A stretch of DNA of 64,000 nucleotides from Sumerlaeia bacterium (GTDB lineage: Bacteria; Sumerlaeota; Sumerlaeia; SLMS01; JAHLLQ01): the NCBI GenBank assembly GCA_040219255.1, contig JAVJSW010000049.1, positions 128,001 through 192,000 on the forward strand, read 5' to 3'. The first letter of the stretch is position 1. The number at the start of each line of letters is the position of its first letter. Shown here piece by piece: positions 15,661 through 40,566 of the stretch. A program made the translations under genes and the position numbers. Under the pieces are notes generated by a model. It made no database searches. It saw only the letters and a list, made by a program, of their open reading frames with translations, and was not told the origin of the DNA.

Positions 15661-15810
15661 CCGCTTCTTCCGGTCGAAAGGCGTTGATTGTTTGAGCCAT
15701 TGCAGGGGCCGAAGAAGGGCCAGCCGGAACCGGCTGGCCCTTCTTCGCGAGAACGCTCCCGCCATCCCTTCCATACCGCCGAATTCTTTCCTGGAGACAC
15801 CCTATCCCTC

Positions 15811-19379: not shown

Positions 19380-19411
19380 ACGGTTCGCCATCGATCGAAA
19401 AGGACGTTCTC

Positions 19412-20767: not shown

Positions 20768-20777
20768 AAAAAACGGC

Positions 20778-20804
20778 GATGGGGGAGCGGCCAGCTCCCC
20801 CATC
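20778..20804. terminator. Bidirectional terminator hairpin between convergent genes
   Basis: GATGGGGGAGC-ggcca-GCTCCCCCATC with an upstream A-run and downstream TCTTT. Confidence 0.7.
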
Positions 20805-20829
20805 TCTTTCCCTGCAATCACTCGTTCCC

Positions 20830-21780: not shown

Positions 21781-21841
21781 GGAACCTGTTGTCTTTCTGG
21801 TGTTCGTTGGTCAGGGAATCACACTCGCGCCCGGGTTCGCG

Positions 21842-25800: not shown

Positions 25801-26805
25801 ATAGGCCACCGAGACGTTGGGGTGGTATTCGTGGTACTTGAAGCGGAAGTCTTCCGGGCGTTGGACGTGGTTGACTTGCGTGAAAGGCATCCATTGGCCT
25901 TGGGACTTGGACCGGTTGGCAAAGGCCTCCGGCGCCAGATCGTAGTAGGCCCGGGTCATACCCCGGAATCCGAATTCGCCTGGGAAAGGAAAAACCCAGT
26001 ATTCGAGGGGGACCTGGTGGGGGCTGCTGGTCAGGTGGGCGCTGAGGGCGACGTCGATCTCGATGGCCAGTTCGCCCTGCGGTCCGTCCCAGAGGACGCG
26101 GTGCAAACGCGGCTGGTCCGGCGGCAGGCCCACCCCCACGCCGCCCCAGGGCCCCGTCAGGCCGCCCCACATATAGCGGGAAATCGCGCCGGTGGCTCCG
26201 GCGGCGATGGAGAACGTGTCCTGGATTTCGGCGTTGGCCAGGGCTTGCTGCGAGCCGTTCAAGTGGCCCTGCCACTCCAACTCCCCGTCCTCCGCGCCAT
26301 CGATGGGCACGGAGAAGCGAACGGTGACAATGCGTTCGTCCCCGAAAGTTTCGGGGTCGGCGTTCTCGATGGCGCCGAAAACCCGCAGGTATCCCTCGCC
26401 ATCGGCCCATCGGACCCAACCACGAAGCCCGCGCTCCTCGGAATGCCACTTGGCCGCGTCGCCGAGCGAATTGCTGATGAGCGCATCGCCGGACAGAGGC
26501 CAGCTCACTTGCCCGATGGCGGTCAATTGCGAGCGAACTTCCTCCTCGGCGAGCAAACTGCCCACGGTGTTTTCCGGCGCGGCTGTTGTGGAGGAGGGCT
26601 TGCCGGCGGCATCCGCCGAGCCCCTCCATTCCGTCACCGTGAGGGCCAGTGGCCGAGCCGACAAGGTCTGGCCATCCCTGGAGAGTTGGACTCCGTTTTC
26701 CCGTGTGACTTGCAAACCGTCTGGAGTAGCGGCCGCCAGAGTGCCGGCGAACGCGCAAACACCTGCGGCCGCCAGAGCCCGGCCCTTTTTCGAAAAGCAT
26801 CTCAT
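22885..26805 (-). CDS. Large secreted uncharacterised protein; probable glycoside hydrolase with an inserted CBM-like domain and C-terminal F5/8 (CBM32-like) domain
   Basis: Signal peptide; 'GFYLDSFEGW', 'LLMANT', 'DVLGIET' TIM-barrel-like motifs; 'NLLENAGFE' CBM4-like; C-terminal 'LNDG...WAS...PHWATFLL...VAIHW...WIEEVE'. Confidence 0.65.
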   Translation of the reverse strand: MRCFSKKGRALAAAGVCAFAGTLAAATPDGLQVTRENGVQLSRDGQTLSARPLALTVTEWRGSADAAGKPSSTTAAPENTVGSLLAEEEVRSQLTAIGQVSWPLSGDALISNSLGDAAKWHSEERGLRGWVRWADGEGYLRVFGAIENADPETFGDERIVTVRFSVPIDGAEDGELEWQGHLNGSQQALANAEIQDTFSIAAGATGAISRYMWGGLTGPWGGVGVGLPPDQPRLHRVLWDGPQGELAIEIDVALSAHLTSSPHQVPLEYWVFPFPGEFGFRGMTRAYYDLAPEAFANRSKSQGQWMPFTQVNHVQRPEDFRFKYHEYHPNVSVAYNNQNDIWSLVYCEPTVQWVQMPAGMARDTAELFPYIDSLDTAQGSAVRSSGSYGPDGQFSTTFAIFPWADGARIPMNSNPRIPRTDRNPVNGFDLSWQPYSDLLARQQSAEPLAWKGGGVAERNVIQAQGRALRLADGSSAFQTIPAGRPGASELEVTVRYLAGENTRLMVRGASGDTKTLAPDAPHVWQRQTVAVDPGATNPRLELIAQGGEVLIDHVDARPAGDPSAGNLLENAGFEATAADAEAVTGFYLDSFEGWEAVQLDYRAANNALSPYPLTFHPATGAVGQINMWHNFAFAEEAARRVHQNGHLLMANTALYKFGWSGPLLDVLGIETNWGGGEHLTPPSIDMMDFIRTLSYQKPYCFLQNVPFDRFRGKKVEQYFARCLHYGMWPGFFSHDAASDPYWENARLYNEDRWLSLKFMAPQGLLTSMGWEPITLASLDRPDLLAERWGGGAYRGTPLNTRRVGFTLYNPSDVGRRGRVTLDPALFGDSPDVVAWDLIQGKRLSLSEDGRSFEADVAPLDVRAILVFRRDRESLETETRGARRAMAELADKWRRHGMIPGKMADEAEAFAGSSLTDPGRALATLAAWEKTLAPSLEDLYRDIEWTRQAAFLRTLESLLWQEIEGDRFEPMVPAVASPGYPLRIQLPERDGALLVRAGWGGELTRLPLDDHTATLLVSGDAPLGGEIRVVVTETGRGASLEERLLYEALLPIVPPVELGDIPAETVFRDRGRATLSVHNNLVEDLAARIRVEGLPAGLSATVEPAADLLLPDGETQELAIVFQPQGTSGEITAPVTVSLIGDQGQPLSKASFRVVRLSQESSLLRESSVEVATDSNFWGYTPRPLNDGVTDTSNKDWSEAAWASEEGLQPHWATFLLKEPRTLSRVAIHWAMDSNVHQTSQFVRIEGRTSPTAPWELLAEVRPGQPEERSEVSFEPRTLRELRVYQPTGSGPAARPGILWIEEVEAR

Positions 26806-26917: not shown

Positions 26918-28402
26918 TCAGGGGATCGGCAGGGCGATGGGGCCGTGCTGGGGAGCCCAATCGGCGGGCGCCCAATCCGTGTCGGTCGTTCCCACCCAGA
27001 CGCGCAATGTCGAGCCTGAGCGCAGATTCAGCAACTCGAAGGGGACGGCATGGGAGATCGAATCGGCGGCGGTTTCGGGCTGGGTGTCGCTGAGAATCGG
27101 ACTCCATTGCCAGGCGCTCGCGGCGCCGCTGTGCCGATAGAGTTGCTGGCCCTCGATCATCATGTCGGCCCCGTGCTGCATCGCGGTCTCGTAACCCGTC
27201 GTGGTGTCGCCATCGGTGTCGAAATAGACGTGGAGTCCTTCGAGCCGAGGCGTTGCGGCGAAGCGCGTCGTGACAATCAGGTTCGAGGCGTCGGCGAAGA
27301 GCGAGACACCGGTGATGTCGTCCGCCATGCTGGCCGTGTCGCCCCGGGCGTCGGTGGCTTCTTCCTGGCTCAGCTTGTTCATCCTGCGTGTATCGGCGGG
27401 GGCTTTGACGGTCTGGCGCGTGGTGGTGCTTTGGCCGGAAACGGCCAGCGGCGCCGCGTCCGGCACGGCGTCAGAGAAGGTGCCGCCAAGGTCCATCGCC
27501 TGGGCCCAGACGCGGGCCGACTCCAGCGAACCACCGACGTCCTCGTCCGTAACCGTATAGGTGATGACATTGCCTGTCCAATCGGAGGCGTTTTCGTGCA
27601 GGAATTCCCAATTCCACTCGCGCGGGTTGCTGCCGGCGAAGCGGTACAGACGCGTGCCTTCGACCATGTACTCGGCGCCCGCGTGGGCGGAGGATTGGTA
27701 GCCCGTCCCGGAATCGCCATCCCCATCGACGTAGAATTGGTAGGTCGAGAAGGAAGTCAGTTCGATCGGGCGGGTGTACTCCACGGAGAAACGGAGGGCG
27801 TCGGAGGCGCGTTCGAGAGTGGCGCCCAGGAGATCGAAGTCCGCGTTGGCGGCGTCACCGCGCCGGTCGGCGATGTGGCGGGCGCCCTTGCTGTCCCAGG
27901 TCCGATCGGTCGTTGGACTGGAGCTTGCGGCGGGGGCCGCGGCGGGAGGGAGGTCTTCCCCGCGCAGGAAGGCGAGAAGCGCGTCCGCCGTCATAGGCCC
28001 GGTATGGCGGGCCAACTCGGTGGGGCTGCCGCCGCCGGAGAACAGGATCAGCGTCGGAACGCGATGCACGCCCATACGCGAGCAGAACGGATGCACCTGG
28101 CGGTCGTCCGCGTTGACGAAGAAAAGCTCTCGCTTCTCGAGTTCCTCGCGCACTTCCACCCGGTCGGTCATCAGGCTCTCGAGTTCCCGGCAGACGGTGA
28201 CGGTGCCGACACGGAAGTAAACGAGGGCGTTCGCGGGGGGGACGAAGGACTGGGAGCCGACGCGCTTCCAGTCGAGTTCGCCTCCGGTTGTCCGGCCCGC
28301 CGCGGGAGCGGAGCCGAGCAGCGCGAGGGCCAGGAGCAGCAGGAGTTCCCAGGCGGCGGCGCGCTTTCGCCAGCGCGGCGGGTCAGTCGGATTGGCAGTC
28401 AT
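26918..28402 (-). CDS. Secreted thioredoxin-fold-like protein (no CxxC) with two 'D..GD...Y.D.DGD..TGY' modules
   Basis: Hydrophobic signal; 'VTVCRELE...FFVNADD...MGVHRVPTLILF...ELARHTG' Trx-like; two repeats with YVDGDGDSGTGY / YFDTDGDTTTGY. Confidence 0.62.
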   Translation of the reverse strand: MTANPTDPPRWRKRAAAWELLLLLALALLGSAPAAGRTTGGELDWKRVGSQSFVPPANALVYFRVGTVTVCRELESLMTDRVEVREELEKRELFFVNADDRQVHPFCSRMGVHRVPTLILFSGGGSPTELARHTGPMTADALLAFLRGEDLPPAAAPAASSSPTTDRTWDSKGARHIADRRGDAANADFDLLGATLERASDALRFSVEYTRPIELTSFSTYQFYVDGDGDSGTGYQSSAHAGAEYMVEGTRLYRFAGSNPREWNWEFLHENASDWTGNVITYTVTDEDVGGSLESARVWAQAMDLGGTFSDAVPDAAPLAVSGQSTTTRQTVKAPADTRRMNKLSQEEATDARGDTASMADDITGVSLFADASNLIVTTRFAATPRLEGLHVYFDTDGDTTTGYETAMQHGADMMIEGQQLYRHSGAASAWQWSPILSDTQPETAADSISHAVPFELLNLRSGSTLRVWVGTTDTDWAPADWAPQHGPIALPIP

Positions 28403-29549
28403 GATAGGCCTCGATTCGCAGGCCGTCGCCGCAGCGGACCCGCCAGTAAGGGGCGCCCATGTCGTCGAGGACACGGCAAACGCCTTCAGTGTGCTCTTCT
28501 TCGCAGAGGACGAAGCAGGTGCCGCCTCCACCGGAGCCGTTGATCTTTCCGCCGAGCGCACCGTGCTCGCAGGCGTTCGCCAGGATGGAGTCGATGCGCT
28601 CTGTCGAAACACCCAGGGATTTGGAGAGTTGTGTGTGATGTAAACTGAGCAATTTTCCAAGCCTTTCCAGGTCGTGCCGGTCCATCGCGGGACCGCCTTG
28701 GTCAAAGAGTTCGCGCGCCGCTTCGGTCAGGCGCCGGTTCACGAGATTGCCTTCGATCAGCCGGCGAAGGGCGCCGTCCTCCGCCTGAGACTCGTCCGCC
28801 GAACCGTTCCCGCTCGTGAGCTTGCGATGCTCCCACTCGGCGAACGGATCGTGCTTGGTGGTGCAAACGAAGCCAGCCCTCTCCAGAGGGCGGCGCACAC
28901 GGCCCAACACGCCGTTCGTATCCTTGGGCTGGCCGCTGCCGATCAGCAGGATCACGCCCCCGAAACCCGGCAGCGTCTGCACCGGATAAGGCGGAAGCGT
29001 CTTGAGGTAGACCACCCCGCCGAAGGCCGAGGAGAACTGATCCATCATGCCGCCGGGCGAGCCAAATTCCAGCACTTCGCTCTGGTGTGCCAGCATCGCC
29101 ACCGCGTGCGGATCGTTGGCCCGGGGCGAACCGGCGGCGGCATAGAGAAACGCGGACCAGGCGATCTGAAGCGCCGAGGAGCTTGAGGCGCCCCCGTTGA
29201 TCGGGATCGTGCTCTTGACTTCCACGTCGTATCCGGCCGGCCAGGAAATCCCTTGGCGCAGAATGCAATTCGAAGCGGCGGGCAGATAATCGCGGTCGTG
29301 CCGGTAGGCGAACGGCTTGTTCGGGTCGTAGGAGAATTCCTCGCCCACGTCGGGCAGCGAGATGCGCCACTTAGGACCGTTGCGGCGTGAGCCGCGCAAC
29401 TCGACTCGCAGGTCGATGGCGCTGGCGATGACCGGCAATCCGAGGTAATCTTGATGTTCGCCGAAAAGACAGATGCGTCCGGGAGCGCTGGAAACCAAGC
29501 TCGCCGGGGGCGACACGACGCCCTCTTGATCCACTAGGAAGCCAGACAT
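28383..29549 (-). CDS. galK: Galactokinase-family GHMP kinase
   Basis: APGRICLFGEHQDY, PINGGASSSSA, GMMDQ, GGKINGSGGGG. Confidence 0.82.
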   Translation of the reverse strand: MSGFLVDQEGVVSPPASLVSSAPGRICLFGEHQDYLGLPVIASAIDLRVELRGSRRNGPKWRISLPDVGEEFSYDPNKPFAYRHDRDYLPAASNCILRQGISWPAGYDVEVKSTIPINGGASSSSALQIAWSAFLYAAAGSPRANDPHAVAMLAHQSEVLEFGSPGGMMDQFSSAFGGVVYLKTLPPYPVQTLPGFGGVILLIGSGQPKDTNGVLGRVRRPLERAGFVCTTKHDPFAEWEHRKLTSGNGSADESQAEDGALRRLIEGNLVNRRLTEAARELFDQGGPAMDRHDLERLGKLLSLHHTQLSKSLGVSTERIDSILANACEHGALGGKINGSGGGGTCFVLCEEEHTEGVCRVLDDMGAPYWRVRCGDGLRIEAYHDCQSD

Positions 29550-30628
29550 GGGGCGATCTCCGAGATTTCAATAGGCCGGCCTTCGCGCAGAGAACGCTCC
29601 GCGGCCAAGGCGATGAGCAGCGCGTCGCGCCCCACTTCGGCGCTGGCTGTGGGGACGGTTCGCCGGGCGCAGGCATCCAGAAATTCCCGCCGCTGCGTCT
29701 GGCAGCCGATGTGGCCGATGCCCTCGTTGTCCGCCAGCATGTCCATCCGCTCGAAAGTGAGCGGCTGCCCCAGACCGCCCACCCCCAGGCGCGCGTCCTG
29801 ATAGGCGATCATCTGGCGGCCGCTCAGGGAAATGGCGCCCACTTCCAGCCCTTCCGGCATCACATTGTGGGGGCGCAGGTACATGCACAAAATCAGGGAC
29901 GCGCGGCCACCATTCTCGTAGTCGATCGTCACCAGCGCGTGATCCACCGTGTCGATGGACGCGACGGCCAATGGCGGGTCGGGGCAGTAGTCGCAATCGA
30001 TGATCGAGCCGTCTTTCCAGACGTGCTGGCCACCGGTGGCCCAGACGCGCGTGGGGCGGCTGCCGATCATCCAGTTGAACAGGTCGAAGTGATGGCAGTC
30101 CTTCTCGACCATCGTGCCGCCGGTGGCGGCCTGGCTGTAGAACCAGGGTTTCTGCGGGAAGCACTGGCGCAGTTCCTTGCACCACATCAGGCGCACCGGA
30201 TGAGCCGGGTCGGCGGACAGCTCGGCCATGCGGCGATAGAGGTTCGAGTAGCGGTAGACGAGACCGATCTGAAGCACGGCGCCGCACCGTTCGGCCTTCG
30301 CGATAATCGCGTCGCAATCGCCGATGGTGTTCGAGATCGGTTTTTCGAGAAGAAGATCGGCGCCCGCGTCGAGACACGCCTCGGCCACCTCGCGATGAGC
30401 ATCGTCGGGCACCGCGATCACCACCGCGTCCGGCTTTTCATCCGCCAGCATGCGGCGGAAATCGGTGTAGTGGCGCGGTGCCTCGTGGCGCCATTCGATG
30501 GGGCGGATCGCCAACGCCGCCGCATCCCGGTCCGCCGTGGCCACCACGCGGCAATCGTCGAGCCTGTCGAACCCACGGGCGTGGGCCGCGCCCATATCGC
30601 CCAAACCAATAACTGCTATTCGAAGCAT
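29534..30628 (-). CDS. Gfo/Idh/MocA family oxidoreductase
   Basis: IAVIGLGDMG, DAVVIAVP, LLEKP, GGTMVEKDCHHFD. Confidence 0.9.
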   Translation of the reverse strand: MLRIAVIGLGDMGAAHARGFDRLDDCRVVATADRDAAALAIRPIEWRHEAPRHYTDFRRMLADEKPDAVVIAVPDDAHREVAEACLDAGADLLLEKPISNTIGDCDAIIAKAERCGAVLQIGLVYRYSNLYRRMAELSADPAHPVRLMWCKELRQCFPQKPWFYSQAATGGTMVEKDCHHFDLFNWMIGSRPTRVWATGGQHVWKDGSIIDCDYCPDPPLAVASIDTVDHALVTIDYENGGRASLILCMYLRPHNVMPEGLEVGAISLSGRQMIAYQDARLGVGGLGQPLTFERMDMLADNEGIGHIGCQTQRREFLDACARRTVPTASAEVGRDALLIALAAERSLREGRPIEISEIAPCLAS

Positions 30629-30685: not shown

Positions 30686-31297
30686 TTACGGCGCGATCCC
30701 CGGGATTCCGGAGGACGAACCGCCATAACGCACCACGTCGCCATTGGACACGGTCCCGTTGGTGGCGTCGTACACGCCGTTCTCCGCGATGATTCCATCG
30801 TTGTCGGCCGGATCGCCCACCAGATCGAAGTCCAGATCGGGCCCCATGCTGCGGAGCGACCAGGCCTCCGCGTCCCAACGCAGAAAACCCACCGGCGGAT
30901 CGCTGGCGTAGTGGAAATATCGGTACGACGGGCCCCACGGCTCGGTGAAGTTCTTCTGCGGGTTGGCCGAGAGTTGGGGCTCGCCAGCCTGGAACGGATC
31001 GGCCGGAACGGACGTGATGTAGGCGATCGGCGTCGTCAGGAAGAAAACCGCCGTCTCGCCGTAGGGACCGCTCGTCGCCGGGTTGGTCCCGTAGAAGGGC
31101 GGGTAGTGGTTGTAGTCGACGACGTAAGCCTCGAAGGCGGTGGCCAGGGTACGCAGATCGGACTGGGCGCGGGAGACCTTGGAGCGCGTTTGCGCTTCCA
31201 GGAAGTTCGGCACGGCGATGGCCGCGAGGATGGCGATGATGGCGACGACGATGAGCAGTTCGATCAGCGTGAAGGCCGAGCGGCGGGAGTGAGTCAT
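30686..31297 (-). CDS. Prepilin-type N-terminal cleavage/methylation (pseudopilin-like) protein 1
   Basis: SA|FTLIELLIVVAIIAILAAIAVPNF class III signal; GGAGG RBS upstream of ATG 31297. Confidence 0.88.
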   Translation of the reverse strand: MTHSRRSAFTLIELLIVVAIIAILAAIAVPNFLEAQTRSKVSRAQSDLRTLATAFEAYVVDYNHYPPFYGTNPATSGPYGETAVFFLTTPIAYITSVPADPFQAGEPQLSANPQKNFTEPWGPSYRYFHYASDPPVGFLRWDAEAWSLRSMGPDLDFDLVGDPADNDGIIAENGVYDATNGTVSNGDVVRYGGSSSGIPGIAP

Positions 31298-31508
31298 GGC
31301 GGGTGTCCTCCGACAATTTTTCGCTCTCATTCTTTAAAGAGCTTGAATTTCTATGACGGTGCCCTCGACCCGCCCTCCTGTCAATGACTATCTCATCCCG
31401 ATTTCACGAGCGAATCACTTTTTTGCAGAAGCCTTAAAAATAAAAAATCACTCCACCGACTGGACTTGCGGCGGAGCGCTTCGTTTTTGTTCAAGCGGCT
31501 GCGTTTTT

Positions 31509-32801
31509 TTAGAGCACCTGCTCGAGGTTCACGTGCGAGGTCATGAAGATGTGGTGCAGCACGATGGCGGCGGCGCCGAGGGTGCTTTCGTTCTCGCGTT
31601 GCTGGCTGATGATGAGCCTGGTGCGGGGGCGGACCGCCGGGAGCACCAGCCGTTCGAGGTTTTTCTCCACCATCGGCATGAACAGCGCGTTCGAGCGGCA
31701 CACGCGGCCTGTCAGGATCACCGCCTCCGGGTTGAACAGGGAAATCACCGTCGCGATGCCGTAAGCCAGATGCAGTGCGAAGCGCTCGATCACCTCCGTC
31801 GCCTCTCGATCGCCCTGGGATGCCATTTCGGCGATCTCCGAGGCGTCGCGGAAGTTCAGGCCCGCCAGCCGGCCGAGGCGGGCGATGCCGGCACCGGACG
31901 CCACGTTCTCCAGCCCGCGCTCGATCCCCGTGTACCAGGGCACGCCGGCGTCGCCGAGGGGGATGTGACCCAGTTCGCCGGAGAATCCCATGGCGCCGCG
32001 GAACAGTTTCTTGTCGATGACGATGCCCATGCCCAGGCCGAAGCCGATGTTGATGACGGCGAAGGTGTTGAGGTCGCGGCCGGTGCCGAACCACATCGAG
32101 CCGAGGGCGCTCATGCGGGCGTCGTTGTCGAGGAAGACGGGAACGCCGAAGCGTTCTTCCAGGCTGTGGCGGATCTGGCGTTCGTCCGTGCCGCCACCCG
32201 CGTGCGTCGCGGCGGCGCCGTTCGATGCGGGCCCGGCGGGGCGTTCCGGTTCGCCGACGAGACCGGGCAGAGCCACGCCGATGCCGGCCAGCGGCGGAAG
32301 CATGGAAGCCTGGGAGACGTAGAGGTTTTCGCCGAGGCGCACCAGCCGCTTGGCCAGTTCCTCCGCGGATTCGGACTCCGGCGTGTCTTCTTCGATGCGG
32401 GCGAGGATCGTGCCCCCCAGGCTGACCGCCACACCGGTGGTTAGGCGCTTGCCGGCGTCGATGCCGACGACGCAGGCGGCCTGGGGATTGAGCGTGACGA
32501 GTTTGGAATGGCGGCCCAGCCGGCTGGTCTTGCTTTTCTCTTCGAAGACGAGGTGTTCATCGAGGCTCTCCTGCACGAAGGAGGAGACGCTGGGCAGGTT
32601 GAAGCCGGAGATATCGACGATATCGCGGCGGGAGATCGGCCCCGACTGGCGGATGATGTTCAGAACCTGGTGCTTGCGAAGACGGCGCTTCTCCAGGCTG
32701 CGGGCGGCGGGGCTGGAGGAGTCGGGCAGAACGACCAGATCGGGGCGGGTCTTCAAGGGGGAAGTCAAGGAGGGCGAAACCTCGTGTGAATGGTTGCGCA
32801 A
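31509..32801 (-). CDS. ROK family transcriptional repressor (HTH + ROK)
   Basis: N-terminal 'VLNIIRQSGPISRRDI' HTH; GIDAG, GIGVALPG, DNDAR, GLGMGIV, GELGH. Confidence 0.9.
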   Translation of the reverse strand: MRNHSHEVSPSLTSPLKTRPDLVVLPDSSSPAARSLEKRRLRKHQVLNIIRQSGPISRRDIVDISGFNLPSVSSFVQESLDEHLVFEEKSKTSRLGRHSKLVTLNPQAACVVGIDAGKRLTTGVAVSLGGTILARIEEDTPESESAEELAKRLVRLGENLYVSQASMLPPLAGIGVALPGLVGEPERPAGPASNGAAATHAGGGTDERQIRHSLEERFGVPVFLDNDARMSALGSMWFGTGRDLNTFAVINIGFGLGMGIVIDKKLFRGAMGFSGELGHIPLGDAGVPWYTGIERGLENVASGAGIARLGRLAGLNFRDASEIAEMASQGDREATEVIERFALHLAYGIATVISLFNPEAVILTGRVCRSNALFMPMVEKNLERLVLPAVRPRTRLIISQQRENESTLGAAAIVLHHIFMTSHVNLEQVL

Positions 32802-32804
32802 TCG

Positions 32805-33683
32805 TCAACTCTTCAGACCGGTCGTCGCAATACCAGAGACGAAGGCCTTTTGAGCGCAGATGTACAGGACCAGGATTGGCAAAATCGAGACCATGGCTGC
32901 GGCCATCATTTTCGGCCAGTCGCTGCTGAATTGGCCTTGCAGGAAAGAGAGCCCAGCCGTCAACGGCATTTTTTCTAAAGTGTCTATATAAATGAGCGGA
33001 TTGAGCAGATCGTTCCAGCTCGCCATGAAGGTGAAGACCCCCAGCGTGGCGAGCGCGGGCCGCGACAGAGGCAGGTAGATCCGCCACAGGATCGTGAAAG
33101 GATTGCAGCCGTCCACCAGCGCCGCCTCGTAGAGATCTTTTGGTATGGAGATATAAAATTGCCGCAGAAAAAAGACGCCGAAGGCCCCGCCAAAAAACGT
33201 CGGCAGCCAAAGCGGATAGTGAGTGTCCTTCCAGCCGAGCCACTGGAACAGGATGAACACCGGGATGATCGTGAGTTGATAGGGCACCATCAGCGTCACC
33301 AGCGTCGCGCCGAAAATCACGGGCCGCCCCGGAAAGTTCAACCGCGCCATGGCGAATGCCGACATCGAGCAGGACAGCAGCATTCCCAAAACCGCCAACC
33401 CCGTGATCTTGAAGCTGTTGAGCGTGAAGCGCAGCACGGGCAGGTAGTCCTTCGTGAAAAGGTCCGTGTAGTTGCTCCAGTTCCATGCTTCCGGAATCAG
33501 CGTGGGCGGATAGGCGAAGGCCGACGAGAAGGTCTTGAGGGACGTCGACACCATCCAGAGGAACGGAAACACCATCGCCAGGGCGATGACTGTGAGCACA
33601 AAGTACCAGCCCGCGGCGGTGGCAATTTTCGAACCGCGGGGCCAGTTGTCGACCCAGCGGGGGGCCTGCGGAGATTTAGTCAT
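32805..33683 (-). CDS. Carbohydrate ABC transporter permease (MalG-like)
   Basis: PFLWMVSTSLK, EAALVDGC (EAA loop), WNDLLNP, GLKS end. Confidence 0.93.
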   Translation of the reverse strand: MTKSPQAPRWVDNWPRGSKIATAAGWYFVLTVIALAMVFPFLWMVSTSLKTFSSAFAYPPTLIPEAWNWSNYTDLFTKDYLPVLRFTLNSFKITGLAVLGMLLSCSMSAFAMARLNFPGRPVIFGATLVTLMVPYQLTIIPVFILFQWLGWKDTHYPLWLPTFFGGAFGVFFLRQFYISIPKDLYEAALVDGCNPFTILWRIYLPLSRPALATLGVFTFMASWNDLLNPLIYIDTLEKMPLTAGLSFLQGQFSSDWPKMMAAAMVSILPILVLYICAQKAFVSGIATTGLKS

Positions 33684-34704
33684 GATGCACCCAAACTCTC
33701 TGAGCCCAGATCTGAATCAGGGTCACGGCGAAAATGATGACAAAGAGGGCGGTTCCGATAGTGGTCGCATAGCCCATCTGGAGGTATTCGAAGCCATTGC
33801 GGTAGAGATAGTACACAAGCGTCAACGTCGAGTCCGCCGGCCGGCCGTCGCGGGCCATGATATAGACCTGGTCGAAAACTTGAAATCCGGAAATCAATGT
33901 GATCACGATGACGAAAAAGGTGATGGGAGAAATCGTCGGCAGGGTCACGTGGAGGAACCGCTGAAAGCGGCCCGCGCCATCTAGGGTGGCCGCTTCGTTG
34001 AGAGACACGGGGACTTCCTGCAAGGCCGCCAGGAAAATCACCATGTTGTAACCGAGGCCCTTCCAGACGCTCATAATGATAATCGCCAGCATCGCCGTTC
34101 GAGGATCGTTCAGCCATTTGACGGGCTCGGGAGGCGTCAGTCCCACGAATTTGAAAGTCTGGGAAATCAGATAATTCAGAACCCCGATGTTCGGATCGTA
34201 GAACCACGTCCAAACCAGCGACACCGCCACGAAGGAAGTGACCACCGGCAGGAAATAGAGCGTGCGGAACACCTTGATGCCGGGCAGTTTCTGATTCACC
34301 AGGATCGCCAGCAGCAGCGACAGGACGACCCCCAGCGGCACGGACAGTGCCACGAAGTAGGCCGTGTTGGCGGAGGCCTTCCAGAACAGGCCGTCGGTCA
34401 GCAGACGCGTCCAATTGCCCAGCCCCTTGAACTCGGGCGCGGTGACGCCGTTCCACTCGCACAGGCTCAGAACCCAAGTGAAAACCACCGGTCCGGCGAC
34501 AAAAAACAGGAGGCCGAAGATGTAAGGCCCGGCCAGGATCAGACCCCACGTTCTCTCGAGCCGCTCCAACGGGCCTCTCCGGCGGGGTCGCTTCTTGGTG
34601 AGGGGCGGGTTCTGGCGAACCGTTTCGACCGCCACATCGGCGGCTTGGTGCTCGGGCCCGTCGTCGCGGACGGGCGCTTCGGACTTCAGCAGAGCCGCGC
34701 TCAT
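33676..34704 (-). CDS. Carbohydrate ABC transporter permease (MalF-like)
   Basis: GLGNW, FRTLYFLP, WKGLGYNMVIFLAALQ, EAATLDGA; ATGA-coupled to the SBP gene. Confidence 0.93.
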   Translation of the reverse strand: MSAALLKSEAPVRDDGPEHQAADVAVETVRQNPPLTKKRPRRRGPLERLERTWGLILAGPYIFGLLFFVAGPVVFTWVLSLCEWNGVTAPEFKGLGNWTRLLTDGLFWKASANTAYFVALSVPLGVVLSLLLAILVNQKLPGIKVFRTLYFLPVVTSFVAVSLVWTWFYDPNIGVLNYLISQTFKFVGLTPPEPVKWLNDPRTAMLAIIIMSVWKGLGYNMVIFLAALQEVPVSLNEAATLDGAGRFQRFLHVTLPTISPITFFVIVITLISGFQVFDQVYIMARDGRPADSTLTLVYYLYRNGFEYLQMGYATTIGTALFVIIFAVTLIQIWAQRVWVHHD

Positions 34705-36023
34705 GGCGCCGTCGCCTCGGCCAGAATCGCCTCCACCTCGGCGGCGGCGTCGCGGCAAGCCTCGGTCGCCTCCTTGCGCCCCAGCCACACCAACTCCAAC
34801 TGCGACCGGATCGCCGCTTCCCATCGCGGAAAGCCCGGCGTGAACGGCAGCGGCTGGGCGTATTCGAACTGCGCCAGGAACGCCTCCTTCACCGCCGGCC
34901 GGTCCGCCAGGTACTCGGGCGACTCGGCGACGCTCTTCAGCGCCGGGATCGACGCGCGCAATTCAGCCAGCTTCTTCTGGTAGGCTTCCGACCCCATGAA
35001 CCGGATGAAGCGCCAAGCCGCTTCCTTGTCCGGCGAGGTGCTCGACATCACGTGGCACAACCCGTTCACCGGCGCGGCTTCACGTTTGCCGGCGGGCAGG
35101 GGAACCACGCTCCACTCAAAGGCGTCGATCTCGTCGTAATTGTTCACCATCCACGACCCATCGGTCGTCATCGCGACCCGGCCGGTCAGGAACATCTGCG
35201 ACCCAAAGGCCGCGGCCTGCGAAGCGTCCGGCGACACCTCGTGCTCGGTCACGAGCGAGGTGTAGAACTCGAGAGCCTCGCGGGCGGCCGCCGTGTCGAG
35301 CAGGCACTCCGTGCGATCTTCCGAAAGAATCCGCCCGCCGTTCTGCCATACGAAGGACCCCCAGTGAACCTCCATCGATTCGAAGGAGGCCAGAAAGCCG
35401 AACTGATCGGTGCGCCCATCGCCGTCGTGATCCCGCGTCAACGCCTTCGCCGCCTCCAGCAGATCGGGCCAGGTCCACTCGCTCGTGGGATGCGCGATGC
35501 CCGCCTCGTCGAACAGGTTCTTGTTGAAATACAGGGCCACCGTGTTGCAATCGCGGGGCATGCCGTAGCGTCGGCCATCCACGGTGAAGACCTCGATGGG
35601 AGCCTGATAGTAGGCGCCGAGGTCGATGGACGGATCGTTGGCGAAACGCTCGGTCAAGTCCTCGATCTGACCCAGAGCCAGGTAATCGTGGAACTGCGTG
35701 CCGCCCAGGAGGAAGACATCGGGGGCGCTCCTGGCCGCCATCTGAGCCTGGATTTTCCGGTTGTATTCGGCCCAGGAGGCGTACTCCACCTTGATCTCGA
35801 TATCGGGGTTCTGGGCTTCGAAGAGCGAAATCAGCTCCTTCTCCGCCGCGATCTCCGAAGGCAACCCCCAGCGGCCGTAGCGCACCAGCGTCTTCTCCGG
35901 AGCGCCGCTTCCGCCGCCGCAGGCCGACAGCAGGGCCAGACCCGCCAGCGCGGTCGCGAAGCAAACCCCCAGGCCCGGCGCCCCGTTCTTTCTCAGTGAG
36001 TTTCGAAGTCGAAAAAGCCGCAT
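34701..36023 (-). CDS. Sugar ABC transporter substrate-binding lipoprotein
   Basis: Lipobox LSA-C; FEAQNPDIEI, APDVF, YGMP, LYFNKNLFDEAG, WTWPDL, FLTGRVAM. Confidence 0.9.
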   Translation of the reverse strand: MRLFRLRNSLRKNGAPGLGVCFATALAGLALLSACGGGSGAPEKTLVRYGRWGLPSEIAAEKELISLFEAQNPDIEIKVEYASWAEYNRKIQAQMAARSAPDVFLLGGTQFHDYLALGQIEDLTERFANDPSIDLGAYYQAPIEVFTVDGRRYGMPRDCNTVALYFNKNLFDEAGIAHPTSEWTWPDLLEAAKALTRDHDGDGRTDQFGFLASFESMEVHWGSFVWQNGGRILSEDRTECLLDTAAAREALEFYTSLVTEHEVSPDASQAAAFGSQMFLTGRVAMTTDGSWMVNNYDEIDAFEWSVVPLPAGKREAAPVNGLCHVMSSTSPDKEAAWRFIRFMGSEAYQKKLAELRASIPALKSVAESPEYLADRPAVKEAFLAQFEYAQPLPFTPGFPRWEAAIRSQLELVWLGRKEATEACRDAAAEVEAILAEATAP

Positions 36024-36177
36024 GGCGAAAAACCCTTTCCCAGAGGTCGGCGACCGCCGCGCACGGCGCGATGGAGCCGCGAGGAGAAGTCGATGTTGCA
36101 ACAAGAGGTAGGGGAGGCCGCACGAGTTTGTCAATTCGATTTTTAAAACTTCTACAACAATGGTTGCGCCTTTCTTT

Positions 36178-37149
36178 TCAGGCATCCGCGCTTCCAGTCC
36201 CGTCTCTTCGCGAACGCTCCGGCCGGCGGAATCCGAGCTGGGCGGCACTGACCGGCAGGCCCATCTCCGGCGACACCTCCCACCGCACGCGGTCCAGCGC
36301 CACCGGCAAGACCGCCTTGGCCAGCGAAAGGGCCGCCATGGTACCGACCGACGGCGCAACGATCAGATCGAAGATTTCCACGCCCGGACCCTCGCCCGGC
36401 ATCAGCGATGCCACGCCGCAAGGCAGACCGGTGGCCAACGGGCCGCCATCGAGAACGGCGATGCGGTGCCTTGCCACGTCCCACGACGGAGCGAAGAGCT
36501 TCGCCAGAAGCGGGTGCTCGAGCGAACCCGGCCGGTCCATCCCCAGGCCCCGCCAGGCGAATCCAGCGGGAGCCTGCGGCGGCAGGCAAAAAAGGTTCAG
36601 CCGGGGCCAGTCACCCCATTCGAACCCGCGCACCCGCCACCGGTGCGCTTCTCCGCAGGACGGGGGAACGGTTCCCCAGACCATGGCACCAGCCAGGCCG
36701 GGGACGGAGCGAAAACCCATCTTGCCATAGAACGCCTCCTGATGCGAATCGGGTTCCACATTGAGTTGCAGGCAACGCACGCCGCGGCCTCCGCAATCGG
36801 CCAGCAGGGCCCCGAAAAGTGCCCTGGCGATGCCGCGCCGGCGATGACTCGCTCGCGTGAACACATGGCCCAGCAATCCGGCGCCTCCGCCCTCCCAGGT
36901 GCACACGTTGGCAACCGGCTTGCCATCGTCGAGCGCCAGATAGAAGCGCCACGCGAGCCCGTCGCGCACACCGGGGGCCTCCTCTCCGCCTTGGCGGCGG
37001 AAGTCCTCGAGATGGGCCATCCAAGGCTGACCCTTGTGCCCCAGAAGATCGGCGAGTTCGAAGGAGGACAGGGAGCGATGCACCGCCAGGGCGAGACCGT
37101 CGTACTCGCCCAAAGGACTGAAATCATCCGCATTGTTGGCCGGTTTCAT
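36178..37149 (-). CDS. GNAT family N-acetyltransferase
   Basis: 'LGHVFTRASHRRRGIARAL' (motif A, R-x-x-G-x-A), 'FYGKMGF'. Confidence 0.78.
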   Translation of the reverse strand: MKPANNADDFSPLGEYDGLALAVHRSLSSFELADLLGHKGQPWMAHLEDFRRQGGEEAPGVRDGLAWRFYLALDDGKPVANVCTWEGGGAGLLGHVFTRASHRRRGIARALFGALLADCGGRGVRCLQLNVEPDSHQEAFYGKMGFRSVPGLAGAMVWGTVPPSCGEAHRWRVRGFEWGDWPRLNLFCLPPQAPAGFAWRGLGMDRPGSLEHPLLAKLFAPSWDVARHRIAVLDGGPLATGLPCGVASLMPGEGPGVEIFDLIVAPSVGTMAALSLAKAVLPVALDRVRWEVSPEMGLPVSAAQLGFRRPERSRRDGTGSADA

Positions 37150-37303
37150 CTCGAAATCCTTTCCGCGTGGGGGCTCTTTTTTCTGGGGAGGATGTGAAAA
37201 TCTATTGACAGGGAATGTCAAACTGGATTTTTAAAACGCATTCAATAAATGACCTCAAGAATTGCGGGCCAGTCCCTTCCACCCTATCAGGAGTTCGCAG
37301 CGT

Positions 37304-38011
37304 ATGGTTTTCTCTTCCCCTTTCCGGAGACTTCCGGCTCCTCCGGCAGTCCGTCGCGGAGCCCTCAAGGGGGTCACTTTCCGGGCCTTCACACTGATCG
37401 AGCTTCTGATCGTCGTCGCGATCATCGCCATTTTGGCGGCCATCGCGGTTCCCAATTTCCTGGAAGCCCAGACTCGTGCGAAGACCTCGCGCGTGAAGTC
37501 CGACATGCGCTCCCTCGCCACCGCCCTTGAGTCCTACCGTGTGGACTCGAATCAGTACCCTTACGGCGATGGCACGGGCGACGGGTTCACGGCGGTCGCG
37601 GGGACACGGCGCCTGACGACACCGATCGCTTACATGACGACGATTCCGATCGATGTGTTCTCGCCCGATCCGAACACGGCGCCGTCCGCCGGTGCCTTTA
37701 TCCATCCCTACTCGCCCGCTTTCTTCTACGTTTCCTCGCGCCCCGGCGGCTTCCCTGGAATCGCGGCCAGCGCGGGCACTTGGGGCTGGCTCGTCGTCGA
37801 CTATCGTGTCAACGCCCTCGCCGTCGCCCCCAACACGGTGCTGGGAGCCGCTCTCGCCAACGAGTCGGAGAACGTTTTCTGGGAGCTTCGCAGCCTCGGT
37901 CCCGACCGCGAAGGCAACTCCAGCTTCCCCTACGATCCCACGAACGGAACGATCAGTTCCGGCGACGTCACCCTCTTCGGTCCCGGCAACTCGGGCAAGA
38001 ACGGCTTCTGA
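37304..38011 (+). CDS. Prepilin-type N-terminal cleavage/methylation protein 2
   Basis: RA|FTLIELLIVVAIIAILAAIAVPNF; AGGAG RBS; TTGACA at 37205. Confidence 0.88.
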   Translation: MVFSSPFRRLPAPPAVRRGALKGVTFRAFTLIELLIVVAIIAILAAIAVPNFLEAQTRAKTSRVKSDMRSLATALESYRVDSNQYPYGDGTGDGFTAVAGTRRLTTPIAYMTTIPIDVFSPDPNTAPSAGAFIHPYSPAFFYVSSRPGGFPGIAASAGTWGWLVVDYRVNALAVAPNTVLGAALANESENVFWELRSLGPDREGNSSFPYDPTNGTISSGDVTLFGPGNSGKNGF

Positions 38012-38090
38012 CGCCGCCGTCTTTCCCGGCCGGCGCCACCCTCGAATCGAACGACCCCCGCTTCACTTCCCACAGGAGATTTTCCCCATC

Positions 38091-39518
38091 ATGCCACACA
38101 ATTTCAGAAACCACCTCCTGGGCTTCGCCGCCCTCAGCGCCCTTCCGCTTCTCGCTTCCGGAGCCGGCGCGCAGACACTCATCGAGAACTTTGAATTCGC
38201 CACCGACAACGCCGCCACCTCCGCCGCTCTGACCGTTGGCGTGGACCCTTCCGTGACCCTGAATCCCGTCAGCGGTTCCGGCGCCGACGCCAACGAGGGC
38301 ACTTTCTCCCTGGGCCTGGACCTCAATCTGGGCGGCGCCGCCTTCGAATCCGGGTTCGTGCGCCGCGTCCTCGCCGCGCCGGTCGCACTGTCCAAACCCT
38401 ACACCACCAGCGGCGTCGACAGCGACAACATCGCCGACCTGCGCGTCACCATCGACGTCAAGGGTGCCCCCGCCTTCGCCAGTTCCCTGAACACCAACCT
38501 GTGGATTCGCCTCAACGAAGCCGATGGCGACATCTGGCGCTACATCAACTTCAGCGACCCCGCCCTCAACGCCGCCACCTACACCGACGACCTGCGCCTG
38601 TTCGGCTTGGTTGATCGCGATGGGGCCTCCACCGGCGACGGCAACTTCACGGAAATCGTCAGCGTCGATCTGCTGATCCAAAACCCCGACGCCGTCGCCA
38701 AAGTGGGCACCATCTTCCTCGACGATCTGAAGGTGGAAGAACCCTCCGACGGCCCCACCTCCACCGGCCTGACCTATGTGGTGCCCCTGATCGATCCCGG
38801 CAACGCCCCCGACGTGACGGATTCCACCTTCGACGCGATCTTCGACAACGGCGGCGCCCATCAGGTCATCACCGGCGAGGACTGGAAAGACTGGGCTTCC
38901 CGCGCTTCCGACGAAGGCACTCCGATCACCGACAACCCCACCTCGGGCACGGAAATCGCCGCCACGTCCAAGGCCTATCTGCTCAGCGACGGCGACACCC
39001 TGTACTTCGGCATGCTCGTTTACGATCCCGACACCTCGGCCATGACCGCCGACACGGGCGACGACACCTATACGAAGTTCAATGTGGAAGACATCGAGGT
39101 CGCCTTCTCCGCCCTCTCCGGCGCCGCAGGCGTCAGCGACGCGGTCAAGCTGACCGCCGACGCTTTCGGAAACTTCGACGACATGATGCCCGACAGCCCC
39201 GCCGGCACGGCGATCAACACGTCGGCCCTGACGAACAGCAACAGCTACATCATCGACGCTAACACCTGGGCCGTGGAATGGAGCGTCGGCATCAATGAGT
39301 TGGTCAACCTCAGCGCGGCCAATCTCACGAACACCCTGCCCAGCGCACCGGGCACCTGGTACGGCCATATCGGCTATCAGTCGCCCTTCCCCACGGCCAA
39401 CCCGCGCGTTCCGCTCTATGCCGCCGGCCACGCCAACGGCTTCGCGAACTTCTCGGTCGAGTTCCTGCTTCCCGGCCCGGCTTCCGCCCACCTCGCCGTG
39501 TGGTCGCTCTACGAGTAA
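38091..39518 (+). CDS. Secreted two-domain protein (CBM-like + CBM9/DOMON-like) with C-terminal Trp tail
   Basis: AGGAG RBS, signal peptide; 'LIENFE...IFLDDLKV' jelly-roll; 'AYLLSDGDTLYFGMLVYD...EDIEVAF...WAVEWSV' CBM9-like; ends SAHLAVWSLYE. Confidence 0.7.
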   Translation: MPHNFRNHLLGFAALSALPLLASGAGAQTLIENFEFATDNAATSAALTVGVDPSVTLNPVSGSGADANEGTFSLGLDLNLGGAAFESGFVRRVLAAPVALSKPYTTSGVDSDNIADLRVTIDVKGAPAFASSLNTNLWIRLNEADGDIWRYINFSDPALNAATYTDDLRLFGLVDRDGASTGDGNFTEIVSVDLLIQNPDAVAKVGTIFLDDLKVEEPSDGPTSTGLTYVVPLIDPGNAPDVTDSTFDAIFDNGGAHQVITGEDWKDWASRASDEGTPITDNPTSGTEIAATSKAYLLSDGDTLYFGMLVYDPDTSAMTADTGDDTYTKFNVEDIEVAFSALSGAAGVSDAVKLTADAFGNFDDMMPDSPAGTAINTSALTNSNSYIIDANTWAVEWSVGINELVNLSAANLTNTLPSAPGTWYGHIGYQSPFPTANPRVPLYAAGHANGFANFSVEFLLPGPASAHLAVWSLYE

Positions 39519-39552
39519 AACCACCGGCCCTCTGACAGGCATCCTCCACACA

Positions 39553-39597
39553 AAGAAACCCAGCGTTGAGCGACAAGACTCGGACGCTGGGTTTCTT
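39553..39597. terminator. Bidirectional terminator between convergent genes
   Basis: AAGAAACCCAGCGT...ACGCTGGGTTTCTT perfect 14-bp inverted repeat. Confidence 0.75.
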
Positions 39598-39619
39598 CTT
39601 GAGATCCCGGGCTTGCGGC

Positions 39620-40312
39620 TTACCCCGGGAACGCCCGCGAAGGAATCCGGAACACGTTCCCCATGCTGACCGTTCCGTTCGTCGGATCGTAGCGATTCCC
39701 CAGGTTGTACCGCGACATCGATATCGTGACGCCATTTTCATCCACCACGTGCAGCGTCTGGCTCGGGCCCACGCTGAACAGCAGCCACCGCGCCGGCGTC
39801 AGCGCCGGATCCGTTACCGCCGTGTCCGGGCCGATACCCTCCATCCTGCCGTTGCCCACCGCGTCGGCCGGCACCAGCACCGCCATCGCCGTCGTCCTCG
39901 TGCCGTCGAGATAGCCGAAACCGGCCCGCTCGTAGTAATACGGCCCCTCTGTAAACGTCAGCCCGGAGCCCGAATCGAGCGGATGCTTGAAGGCGTCTTG
40001 CGGCACATCGGTCATGTACGCGATCGGCGTCGTCAGCCCGCCGGGCCGCTCCACCGCGTTCAGCCGCGGATAGCCTTCGGGCACCATGAACAGCGCCCCG
40101 CCCACCGACTCCGAATACGGATAGGTGTTGTTGTCCACCGCGTAGGCCTCGACCGCCGTGGCGATGGTGCGCATGTCCGACGCCACGCGCGAGACCTTAC
40201 TGCGCGTCTGCGCCTCCAGGAAATTCGGCACGGCGATCGCCGCCAGGATCGCGATGATCGCCACCACGATCAAGAGTTCGATGAGTGTGAATGCTTGTGT
40301 TCTGTTCTTCAT
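39620..40312 (-). CDS. Prepilin-type N-terminal cleavage/methylation protein 3
   Basis: QA|FTLIELLIVVAIIAILAAIAVPNF; same downstream conserved blocks as paralogues 1 and 2. Confidence 0.88.
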   Translation of the reverse strand: MKNRTQAFTLIELLIVVAIIAILAAIAVPNFLEAQTRSKVSRVASDMRTIATAVEAYAVDNNTYPYSESVGGALFMVPEGYPRLNAVERPGGLTTPIAYMTDVPQDAFKHPLDSGSGLTFTEGPYYYERAGFGYLDGTRTTAMAVLVPADAVGNGRMEGIGPDTAVTDPALTPARWLLFSVGPSQTLHVVDENGVTISMSRYNLGNRYDPTNGTVSMGNVFRIPSRAFPG

Positions 40313-40566
40313 GATATTCAATCCAGCCTCCAATACAGCGGGTGATTTCGAACGGTCTTGTGGACCTTCCAATTCCGATTTCACGCATCCTATTTCCCGC
40401 CCCCTCACCGGTCAAGGTTCATCGGGCCGCACGGAAAGCTTTGTCCTGTAGGGGACAAAAGCGCAAACTGGCCAATCTATTCATCCTTGATGGGAGAACC
40501 TCCGGTCATGCCGACGGGGCCTTGCTCTTCATTCGAGCTTTACCTACCCCTCCTCGAAACTAACCC

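Follow-up and report, generated by a model that had tools for sequence, protein, structure and literature searches.

GspG-like filament subunits with variable heads form a large family in Candidatus Sumerlaeota and are partially associated with sugar loci

Three pilin-like genes of the window

The window analyzed here, a stretch of 64,000 nucleotides (nt) on contig JAVJSW010000049.1 (positions 128,001 to 192,000), belongs to a metagenome-assembled genome (MAG) of Candidatus Sumerlaeota, which has a size of 5.35 Mb in 83 contigs, a completeness of 92%, and a contamination of 3.3%. In and next to a sugar locus, the window contains three genes for small proteins with a class-III signal. Counted from the nearest ATG, gene 1 (30686-31297, minus strand) encodes 203 amino acids (aa), which comprise the class-III signal and a GspG-like head, gene 2 (37304-38011, plus strand) encodes 235 aa, and gene 3 (39620-40312, minus strand), which lies downstream of miaB on the same strand, encodes 230 aa. 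The corresponding longer open reading frames (ORFs) span 30686-31330, 37262-38011, and 39620-40408. An earlier note on this DNA had read the genes as pseudopilin-like paralogues with a constant frame and a variable interior, and a MAFFT alignment fully bore this out. An identical N-terminal block of 31 residues (residues 19-49 of the first ORF) is present in all three proteins, they have the internal motifs D..N.YP, LTTPIAY.T..P.D.F, W.L.S.GP, and YD.TNGT.S.G in common, the segments between these motifs are unalignable and of unequal lengths, and an Ala precedes the Phe of the cleavage site in each case.

The Pfam model N_methyl (PF07963) was matched by all three proteins with E-values of 2e-8 to 2e-6 and 27.5-33.9 bits (cut-off 21.2), and the model for the prepilin-type signal (TIGR02532) with 29.3-29.8 bits (cut-off 16.3). 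The matches to T2SSG (PF08334) were marginal throughout, with 22.2-24 bits at a cut-off of 21. Comparison of an alignment of the 34 family members described below with three true GspG sequences using hhalign resulted in a probability of 99.4% and an E-value of 3.9e-21 over 130 columns, whereby IAY..P.DPF was paired with the P.DPW region of GspG and W.L.S.GPD with its S.G.DG strand. AlphaFold2 gave a model with a predicted local distance difference test score (pLDDT) of 70 when 34 sequences were used, and a model of the product of gene 1 with 75 sequences reached 78.5; the AlphaFold2 models contain a helix over residues 11-62 with pLDDT values above 90 and a small sheet. In a scan of 48,161 PDB representatives with VIA-align, EpsG was ranked first (Z 7.4, root mean square deviation (rmsd) 2.6 over 93 residues) and PulG second (Z 6.5), and the top 20 rows consisted of pilins or pseudopilins throughout. 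When VIA-align was applied to the Foldseek list, the top five entries were all of the GspG type (Z 8.0-8.7, rmsd 2.6-4.3 over 93-103 residues). Foldseek itself yielded no match in the PDB at E<=0.001, and the rows that it listed were all pilins; a search of the PDB with a sequence profile gave matches that were confined to the N-terminal helix. Because the hhalign, fold, and Pfam results agree, the proteins are best described as GspG-like subunits with enlarged variable heads. The loop Y-D-x-T-N-G-x-x-S-x-G directly precedes the last strand, at a comparable place in the fold, and may correspond to the calcium site of GspG.

Several observations weigh against a direct equation with GspG. The equivalog model TIGR01710 gave 55.2, 55.3, and 57.3 bits for the three proteins, well below its cut-off of 88.85, compared to 184-190 bits for true GspG proteins that were used as controls (from loci L088, L095, and L097). 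Z-scores of 7-8.7 are middling on VIA-align's own scale, and therefore the profile match carries more weight than the fold match. The hhalign alignment stops at S.GPD, before the C-terminal loop, and provides no equivalence for the calcium site. In addition, residue -1 of the three genes is Ala, not the Gly of type IV filament subunits, and assembly genes are missing from their surroundings. A Pfam scan of 50 window proteins retrieved none of an assembly type, neither for pili nor for a type II secretion system (T2SS), and none with a match to TonB-dependent receptors or SusD, in both respects as the earlier note had stated. Genome-wide, only the paralogue on contig C26 is part of a gsp-type operon. 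Taken together, the three genes belong to a large family of type IV filament subunits with heads on the GspG fold, and they are not GspG equivalogs.

A family of dispersed paralogues with hypervariable heads

For family counting, all six frames of the genome were scanned for the class-III motif and then for the C-terminal motif Y[DN]x[TS]NG. This led to 39 ORFs with a class-III signal, 34 of which have the C-terminal motif, and one more copy is truncated at a contig end, so that the three paralogues of the earlier note turned out to be a small fraction of the family. The number of ORFs above the cut-off of the Pfam model N_methyl is 59; these include the 34 family members and about 25 pilin-like proteins of other kinds. 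Identities of the aligned paralogues to gene 1 range from 38 to 54%. The positions that are invariant in all 34 are the N-terminal FTLIEL, the Pro residues of LTTPIAY and of S.GPD, and Y, D, T, N, G, S, and G of the C-terminal loop, and a Glu at position +5 is present in every copy (34/34).

All members have a common architecture. A short basic leader is followed by an [A/G]-F cleavage site, at which residue -1 is Ala in 27 and Gly in 7 of the 34 proteins, and by an alpha-1 helix, the first ~28 residues of which are identical in most members. The head consists of a GspG-like sheet, which is recognizable from the motifs LTTPIAY..P.DPF and W.L.S.GPD, and the invariant C-terminal loop YDPTNGT.S.GD, and it carries three hypervariable insertions with lengths of 14-121, 29-86, and 8-67 residues. 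Most paralogues (25/34) are devoid of cysteines. In a quick tree, the paralogues radiate in a star-like manner on terminal branches of ~1.1 substitutions per site, and 26 of the 31 inner branches are left open. Silent cassettes of the pilS type were considered as well and were rejected, because every copy has a complete leader and a start codon.

The family is typical of Candidatus Sumerlaeota. All 61 Sumerlaeota genomes that were searched contain matches, their numbers ranging from 17 to 50, with the upper counts to be read as at least. In contigs of one genome per species, full-length relatives were exclusively found in MAGs of Candidatus Sumerlaeota/BRC1, whereas the matches in other phyla comprise the helix only. 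At E<=1e-10, a profile of the head alone matched 3572 cluster representatives (50% identity) out of 1.84 billion; relaxing the threshold to E<=1e-3 raised the number to 6322. These proteins mostly have 180-250 residues, with the head beginning near residue 60, and head-alone homologues have source names like 'prepilin-type...', 'pseudopilin PulG', or 'type II secretion system protein G'; a MAG of Hydrogenedentes is the source of one of them. The head profile also matches longer proteins of 369-1214 aa (P0143, P0144, P0146, and others) at two to four stretches, from which it follows that the YDPTNG-type module exists in repeated or fused forms; the matching stretches often coincide with the region of the C-terminal motif.

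A separate observation concerns contig C71 (7.1 kb, locus L032), which contains a plasmid RepA_C gene together with a family pilin. This pilin and the copy at C8:38805 are the only close pair of paralogues in the genome. The two ends of the contig carry ORFs of 81 aa that are 95% identical and oppositely oriented. A small plasmid or a mobile element that carries a pilin copy would be one explanation for C71, an assembly repeat the other.

A frozen helix and a single prepilin peptidase

The first 28 residues of the helix are identical in 23 of the 34 paralogues. Over the 84 nt that encode this block the mean identity is 84% (range 75-93%), and 46% of the third codon positions differ. A chance sharing of the block is excluded by its identity in 23 paralogues in spite of this third-position divergence, and the same divergence led us to reject a recent gene conversion as its cause. 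The N-terminal block is thus kept by purifying selection on the protein, and not by gene conversion or recent duplication.

The genome encodes one PilD-type peptidase, a protein of 592 aa with the domains A24_N_bact and Peptidase_A24 and a C-terminal MshEN domain (contig C7:49923-51701; locus L165:1424-3202). MshEN is a cyclic di-GMP-binding type of domain, and the fusion hints at a processing of pilins under second messenger control. Assembly components are more numerous. The genome has 18 matches to the T2SSE family above the cut-off, six of which are full-length at E<=1e-120, T2SSF genes are also present, and eight secretins were found. A compact T2SS-like operon on contig C26 (25440-31560; locus L014) contains genes for GspE, two GspF-like proteins, and three small pseudopilin-like proteins, and its last gene encodes a family member of 282 aa with the 121-residue insertion; no secretin match was obtained on contig C26. 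Further pilus-type loci that were checked, on contigs C34, C11, and C60, have N_methyl genes of their own. The earlier note had proposed that the paralogues belong to one shared pilus. Its pattern of a constant helix with variable heads holds throughout the family, and a shared route of processing and assembly would be the simplest reading of the identical N-terminus and the single PilD-type peptidase.

The sugar locus around the three genes

Gene 1 is found within a cluster of co-directional genes in the order GNAT-SBP-permease-permease-ROK-[pilin]-GFO/IDH/MocA-GalK-like-494 aa, in which SBP denotes the substrate-binding protein. It had been regarded as the first gene of a catabolic run, which has to be revised, as it sits inside a cluster that is kept in relatives. 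The cluster begins with a GNAT acetyltransferase gene (36178-37149; Acetyltransf_1, E 6e-11), which is retained upstream of the SBP gene in five relatives. The next gene (34701-36023; record P0058) encodes a sugar-binding lipoprotein of 440 aa of a CUT1-type ATP-binding cassette (ABC) transporter (SBP_bac_8/SBP_bac_1, E 1e-41/5e-40), which has a lipoprotein-type signal with an LSAC lipobox, and the orthologues of which have identities of 52-57%. It is followed by two ABC permease genes (33676-34704 and 32805-33683; BPD_transp_1, E 1e-16 each) and by the gene for a ROK-family regulator or kinase (31509-32768; ROK, E 7.6e-51), which is located immediately upstream of gene 1. Downstream of gene 1, the cluster is continued by genes for a GFO/IDH/MocA oxidoreductase (29534-30604) and a GalK-like GHMP kinase (28383-29534), both assigned by the Pfam scan, and for a protein of 494 aa (26918-28402), the position of which is conserved in relatives. 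All these genes are encoded on the minus strand. A complex prediction for the binding protein (residues 36-440) and the head of gene 1 (residues 31-203) returned a score of 0.00 twice, which weighs neither way.

Gene 2 is followed at a distance of 80 nt by the gene for a secreted protein of 475 aa (38091-39518, plus strand). Pfam yielded no match for this protein; in the ESM Atlas, domains of the CBM9-like and CIA30-like types came up as no more than a lead (feature score 0.91, structure TM 0.48). The sugar locus has an upstream extension at 12757-26637, in which DUF4832 occurs in three genes and is accompanied by DUF4874 in two of these; a GalE-like epimerase and a protein of 1250 aa with a C-terminal F5/8 type C domain are also encoded there. 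We take it that the DUF4832/DUF4874 genes are possibly glycoside hydrolase-like.

Association with carbohydrate genes

Genes were called with a crude codon log-odds model, and the longest ORFs were used for relatives with a low GC content. The list of carbohydrate genes comprised glycoside hydrolases and carbohydrate-binding modules (including NamZ, NAGPA, and GHL10), SBP_bac_1/8, BPD_transp_1, LacI, ROK, GFO/IDH/MocA, and GalK at E<=1e-8. As controls, 238 neighbors of 40 random gene centers were scanned with Pfam; two genes of one center were dropped, one of which encodes 5630 aa. A carbohydrate gene was found within three genes on either side of 12 of the 34 paralogues, compared to seven of the 40 random centers (one-sided Fisher p=0.07). 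Genes for ABC binding proteins, ABC permeases, LacI, or ROK were nearby in 5/34 cases versus 0/40 for the controls, a post hoc result with p=0.017. The signal is clearer when it is viewed from the transporters. Of the 11 SBP_bac_1 loci in the genome, three have a paralogue within 3 kb, while 0.43 would be expected (20,000 permutations, p=0.007), and at 5 kb the same test resulted in three loci (p=0.024) and five paralogues (p=0.0003). The sister genome G013 is similar, with 3 of 10 SBP_bac_1 loci having a paralogue within 3 kb versus 0.5 expected. Another bias concerns the genes downstream of the paralogues, because 10 of 20 same-strand genes within 400 nt encode a signal peptide or an N-terminal membrane signal, compared to 364 of 2337 genome-wide (p=0.0004).

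A number of results speak against a general link to sugars. The overall enrichment is weak, 22 of the 34 paralogues have no carbohydrate gene within three genes, and the carbohydrate categories had been fixed after the neighborhoods of the pilins had been seen. The signal peptide test was home-made and crude, and it flags membrane proteins as well. In genome G005, which belongs to another family, none of nine SBP_bac_1 loci has a paralogue within 3 kb, and one of nine has one within 5 kb versus 0.65 expected. In G004, both binding-protein loci are free of nearby paralogues (0/2). The neighbors of the other 22 paralogues include peptidases (M28, M42), an amidohydrolase, PrfB, Pth, MiaB, an aminoacyl-tRNA synthetase, FabD/FabG, HemC/HemD, kinases, and glycosyltransferases. 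Likewise, the neighbors at ten loci from other Sumerlaeota MAGs (two genes on either side, 33 proteins, no control) are diverse, among them DUF2961, PrfB, a sulfatase, PTS EIIA/EIIB, a flagellin, AcrB, and an FGE-sulfatase. An all-against-all BLAST of the three neighbors on either side of the paralogues gave no universal partner gene. Sugar-linked heads and the remaining heads do not differ in their content of aromatic residues (p=0.43). No 6- to 8-mer was enriched in the upstream regions of the 34 genes compared to 2319 other upstream regions when multiple testing was considered, and no search was aimed at sigma-54 sites.

Two further observations were made among the control regions. A region of contig C20 (~21200-23500; loci L121/L143) contains a tandem array of three genes of the Uma2 family (putative restriction endonuclease-like), and contig C65:49269-76146 contains two giant genes for proteins of 3303 aa (with RHS repeats) and 5630 aa.

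Conservation of the placements

Loci in other genomes were compared with flanks of up to 1.5 kb. The cluster GNAT-SBP-permease-permease-ROK-GFO-GalK-494 aa is kept in genomes G029, G040, G051, and G045, and in G018 the contig ends at the ROK gene. A pilin between ROK and GFO, as in the case of gene 1, is present at two of four informative loci, namely in G040, which belongs to another family, and in G051, and these orthologues have identities of 57-59%. The second conserved placement is a pilin immediately upstream of GH16-CBM6 on the same strand, which is found at all three full-length orthologous loci (G013, G015, which is from another family, and G038).

The remaining comparisons argue against a general conservation of the placements. 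G029 and G045 have the otherwise conserved operon of gene 1 without its orthologue, and gene 1 must therefore be dispensable there. An adjacent family member is lacking at all loci compared for GHL10 (0/6), for the alpha-amylase (0/13; 8 full-length orthologues, one at a contig end), for PrfB (0/19; two loci at contig ends), and for MiaB, the neighbor of gene 3, in other genomes of the order (0/21; one with a convergent copy within 1.5 kb). Similarly, no family member adjoins the G040 orthologue of the 475-aa protein (60% identity). The two conserved placements, both of which lie in regulated sugar operons, are thus old, and most others are specific to this genome.

An arrangement of two pilin genes around a sugar locus was encountered twice. 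On contig C4 (132904-142829; loci L003/L004), two convergent family members bracket one glycan locus in the order LacI, pilin, two GH16-CBM6 genes, two ABC permeases, a binding protein, an unknown protein of 384 aa, and the second pilin. A similar bracketing is seen in the window, where the ABC locus is enclosed by genes 1 and 2.

All in all, the association with sugar ABC loci is partial and lineage-restricted, with a conserved placement in two glycan operons. The earlier interpretation has therefore held up in its pilin-like identity and its variable heads, while its link to sugars applies to a minority of the copies only: it is backed by the SBP_bac_1 loci and the two conserved operons, but 22 paralogues have no carbohydrate gene nearby, and the overall enrichment is weak.

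Possible functions of the variable heads

It has been proposed in the earlier note that variable-loop pilins may act as capture subunits with substrate specificity on a shared pilus and stand in for SusC/D. In the form considered here, the variable heads would capture specific glycans on a surface pilus, which would deliver oligosaccharides to ABC importers and would replace the uptake by SusC/D or TonB-dependent receptors. The genome indeed encodes a single TonB-dependent receptor, paralogues flank three of the 11 CUT1-type binding-protein loci, two sugar-operon placements are conserved across families, and the covered parts of two reports offer precedents, the Sulfolobus bindosome (PMC3047682) and dextran-binding planctomycete fibres (PMC5394234). 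However, about two thirds of the paralogues (22/34) lie away from carbohydrate genes, the heads of the sugar-linked copies show no surplus of aromatic residues, the closest fold is that of a periplasmic pseudopilin and not of a surface pilin, the window encodes a binding protein that is a standard lipoprotein and not a class-III protein, and the ABC association is absent in G005. We consider this capture model to be unlikely. A role in secretion fits the closest fold, a periplasmic T2SS pseudopilin, at least as well, and the same is true for a secretion or tethering of neighboring exoproteins with respect to the GspG-type fold and the bias of the downstream genes. In its strict form, operon-encoded GspG-like subunits in a T2SS pseudopilus would recognize or push out the exoenzymes encoded next to them. 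The GspG-type fold and profile match, the paralogue in the GspE/GspF operon, and the enrichment of exported or membrane proteins downstream (10 of 20 versus 16% genome-wide) agree with such a matching to cargo, for which the two GH16-CBM6 proteins, the GHL10 protein of 1037 aa, the alpha-amylase of 945 aa, and the secreted 475-aa protein are examples, and so does the conserved pairing of pilin and GH16. But the pairings with GHL10 and the amylase are not conserved, gene 1 precedes genes for cytoplasmic enzymes (GFO, GalK), and the signal peptide test does not separate exported from membrane proteins. Furthermore, to our knowledge, cargo is recognized by other parts of the T2SS that have been studied, and not by alternative major pseudopilins, which we count against this explanation. 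A strict matching of heads to cargo is therefore doubtful, too.

A very different possibility is that the heads have no local function at all. They might be interchangeable filament subunits that diversify under outside pressure such as recognition by phages or predators or for surface variation, with copies inserted at arbitrary sites of the genome, and their proximity to sugar genes would be incidental or due to hitch-hiking. The star-like tree with its long terminal branches, the mostly genome-specific placements, the great diversity of neighbors both here and at the ten loci from other MAGs, the copy on the 7.1-kb contig with the plasmid RepA gene, and an overall carbohydrate enrichment of only p=0.07 are all in line with it, and a reading of this kind covers most of the copies. 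It appears not very likely, since paralogues are significantly associated with binding-protein loci in two genomes of the family, orthologous copies with identities of 57-59% have been retained in two sugar operons across families, and exported proteins are enriched downstream. The proteins might also not be filament subunits in the first place, if the class-III signal only anchored small periplasmic or envelope proteins in the inner membrane after cleavage by PilD and the heads were monomeric envelope factors. The lack of adjacent assembly genes for 33 of the 34 copies would be compatible with that, as would the separate N_methyl genes of the pilus-type loci on C34, C11, and C60. However, the identical alpha-1 helix exceeds the needs of a membrane anchor and is what the packing and assembly of filament subunits demand, and Glu5 is invariant; we regard this last explanation as quite improbable.

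The explanation that we favor, with moderate confidence, is that the paralogues share a peptidase and one or several platforms, that they are expressed at the level of their operons, and that the conserved subset in sugar operons serves its operon. All paralogues would be cut and methylated by the single PilD-type peptidase, and the processed proteins would enter one or more common assembly platforms of the T2SS- or type IV pilus-type machines of the genome. A common route of this kind would account for the frozen helix and for the drift of all other parts of the proteins. Because the genes are scattered singly and have no upstream motif in common, each paralogue is probably expressed together with its local operon, and whichever copy is being produced would determine the surface that a common pilus or pseudopilus stem displays. 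For the conserved subset in LacI- or ROK-linked glycan operons, which includes gene 1, the head probably serves that operon; it could aid the export or the holding of the exoproteins of the operon, or it could bind its substrate. Most other copies, including gene 3, seem to be recent and unconserved placements.

A more far-reaching version of this reading is a modular pilus or pseudopilus with an invariant stem helix and dozens of exchangeable, operon-encoded heads, in which the heads from LacI- or ROK-controlled glycan operons act as substrate-specific adaptors that feed ABC importers. We put this forward as a speculation that is unlikely to be correct. If it were true, the glycan or the enzymes that act on it would be retained at the envelope by the glycan-operon heads, and a lineage that nearly lacks TonB-dependent receptors would have its own bacterial equivalent of the archaeal bindosome. 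The sugar-catching pilus is an attractive idea, but it is hypothetical.

Meaning of the family and comparison with known systems

In the literature that was searched on Sumerlaeota pili and on pseudopilin paralogues, supplements aside, a description of this expansion was not found. Of two Sumerlaeota genome papers, PMC8092238 mentions twitching by type IV pili in a single sentence, and PMC10866078 contains none of the pilus or secretion terms that were looked for. None of the Pfam and NCBIfam matches obtained here is to a model dedicated to the head. The family represents a natural experiment on subunits of type IV filaments, in which the assembly helix has been frozen by selection and the heads have radiated. 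The heads of the two conserved glycan-operon placements, with ~140-170 residues, are small soluble targets, and they bear on the long-standing, unproven idea that some bacteria without SusC/D-type uptake acquire polysaccharides via pilus-like fibres. Even if the link to sugars is incidental, there is a consequence for annotation, namely, that these genes should not be taken as evidence for a T2SS or for twitching motility at their loci.

The closest known relatives are the major pseudopilins GspG/PulG/EpsG of the T2SS (TIGR01710, PF08334), which have the class-III signal, Glu5, and the long alpha-1 helix in common with the family, can be aligned with its heads, and are the best structural match. 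In contrast to GspG, the heads of the family are 60-130 residues longer due to the three variable insertions, about 35 dispersed copies per genome exist instead of one gene in a gsp operon, residue -1 is Ala in 27 of 34 copies, and YDPTNGT.S.GD takes the place of the GspG tail. Type IVa pilins (PilA/PilE) have a similar N-terminal helix, and the profile matches PilA of M. xanthus with an E-value of 1e-20 and the gonococcal pilin with 4e-12. However, these sequence matches comprise the helix only, the fold comparison gave Z-scores of 6.4 at most, and the PilA equivalog model NF041775 reached 58-64 bits, restricted to N-terminal residues, at a cut-off of 400. Moreover, with 25 of 34 paralogues free of cysteines, a disulfide-bonded D-region is missing. 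Expansions of prepilin-type proteins with DUF1559 or the H-X9-DG motif are known from Planctomycetes, Verrucomicrobia, and Lentisphaerae, where dozens of dispersed paralogues per genome have a constant N-terminus. At E<=0.01, neither PF07596 nor the H-X9-DG model was matched by the three proteins of the window, and both the head family and the phylum differ.

Two further systems are of interest with regard to sugars. As far as covered here, PMC5394234 reports that the fibres of crateriform structures in planctomycetes bind gold-labelled dextran, which is a precedent for polysaccharide on pilus-like fibres in a bacterium and can be linked to the present family by analogy only. In the Sulfolobus bindosome (Bas), sugar-binding proteins with class-III signals need an assembly ATPase of the pilus type and a platform, according to the covered part of PMC3047682. 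The bindosome is archaeal and belongs to cells with an S-layer and no outer membrane. Class-III proteins are tied to sugar uptake by ABC transporters functionally in Sulfolobus, and in Sumerlaeota by the placement of some of the genes. The class-III signal is on the binding proteins themselves in Sulfolobus, whereas in the window it is on small GspG-like heads and the binding protein is a lipoprotein.

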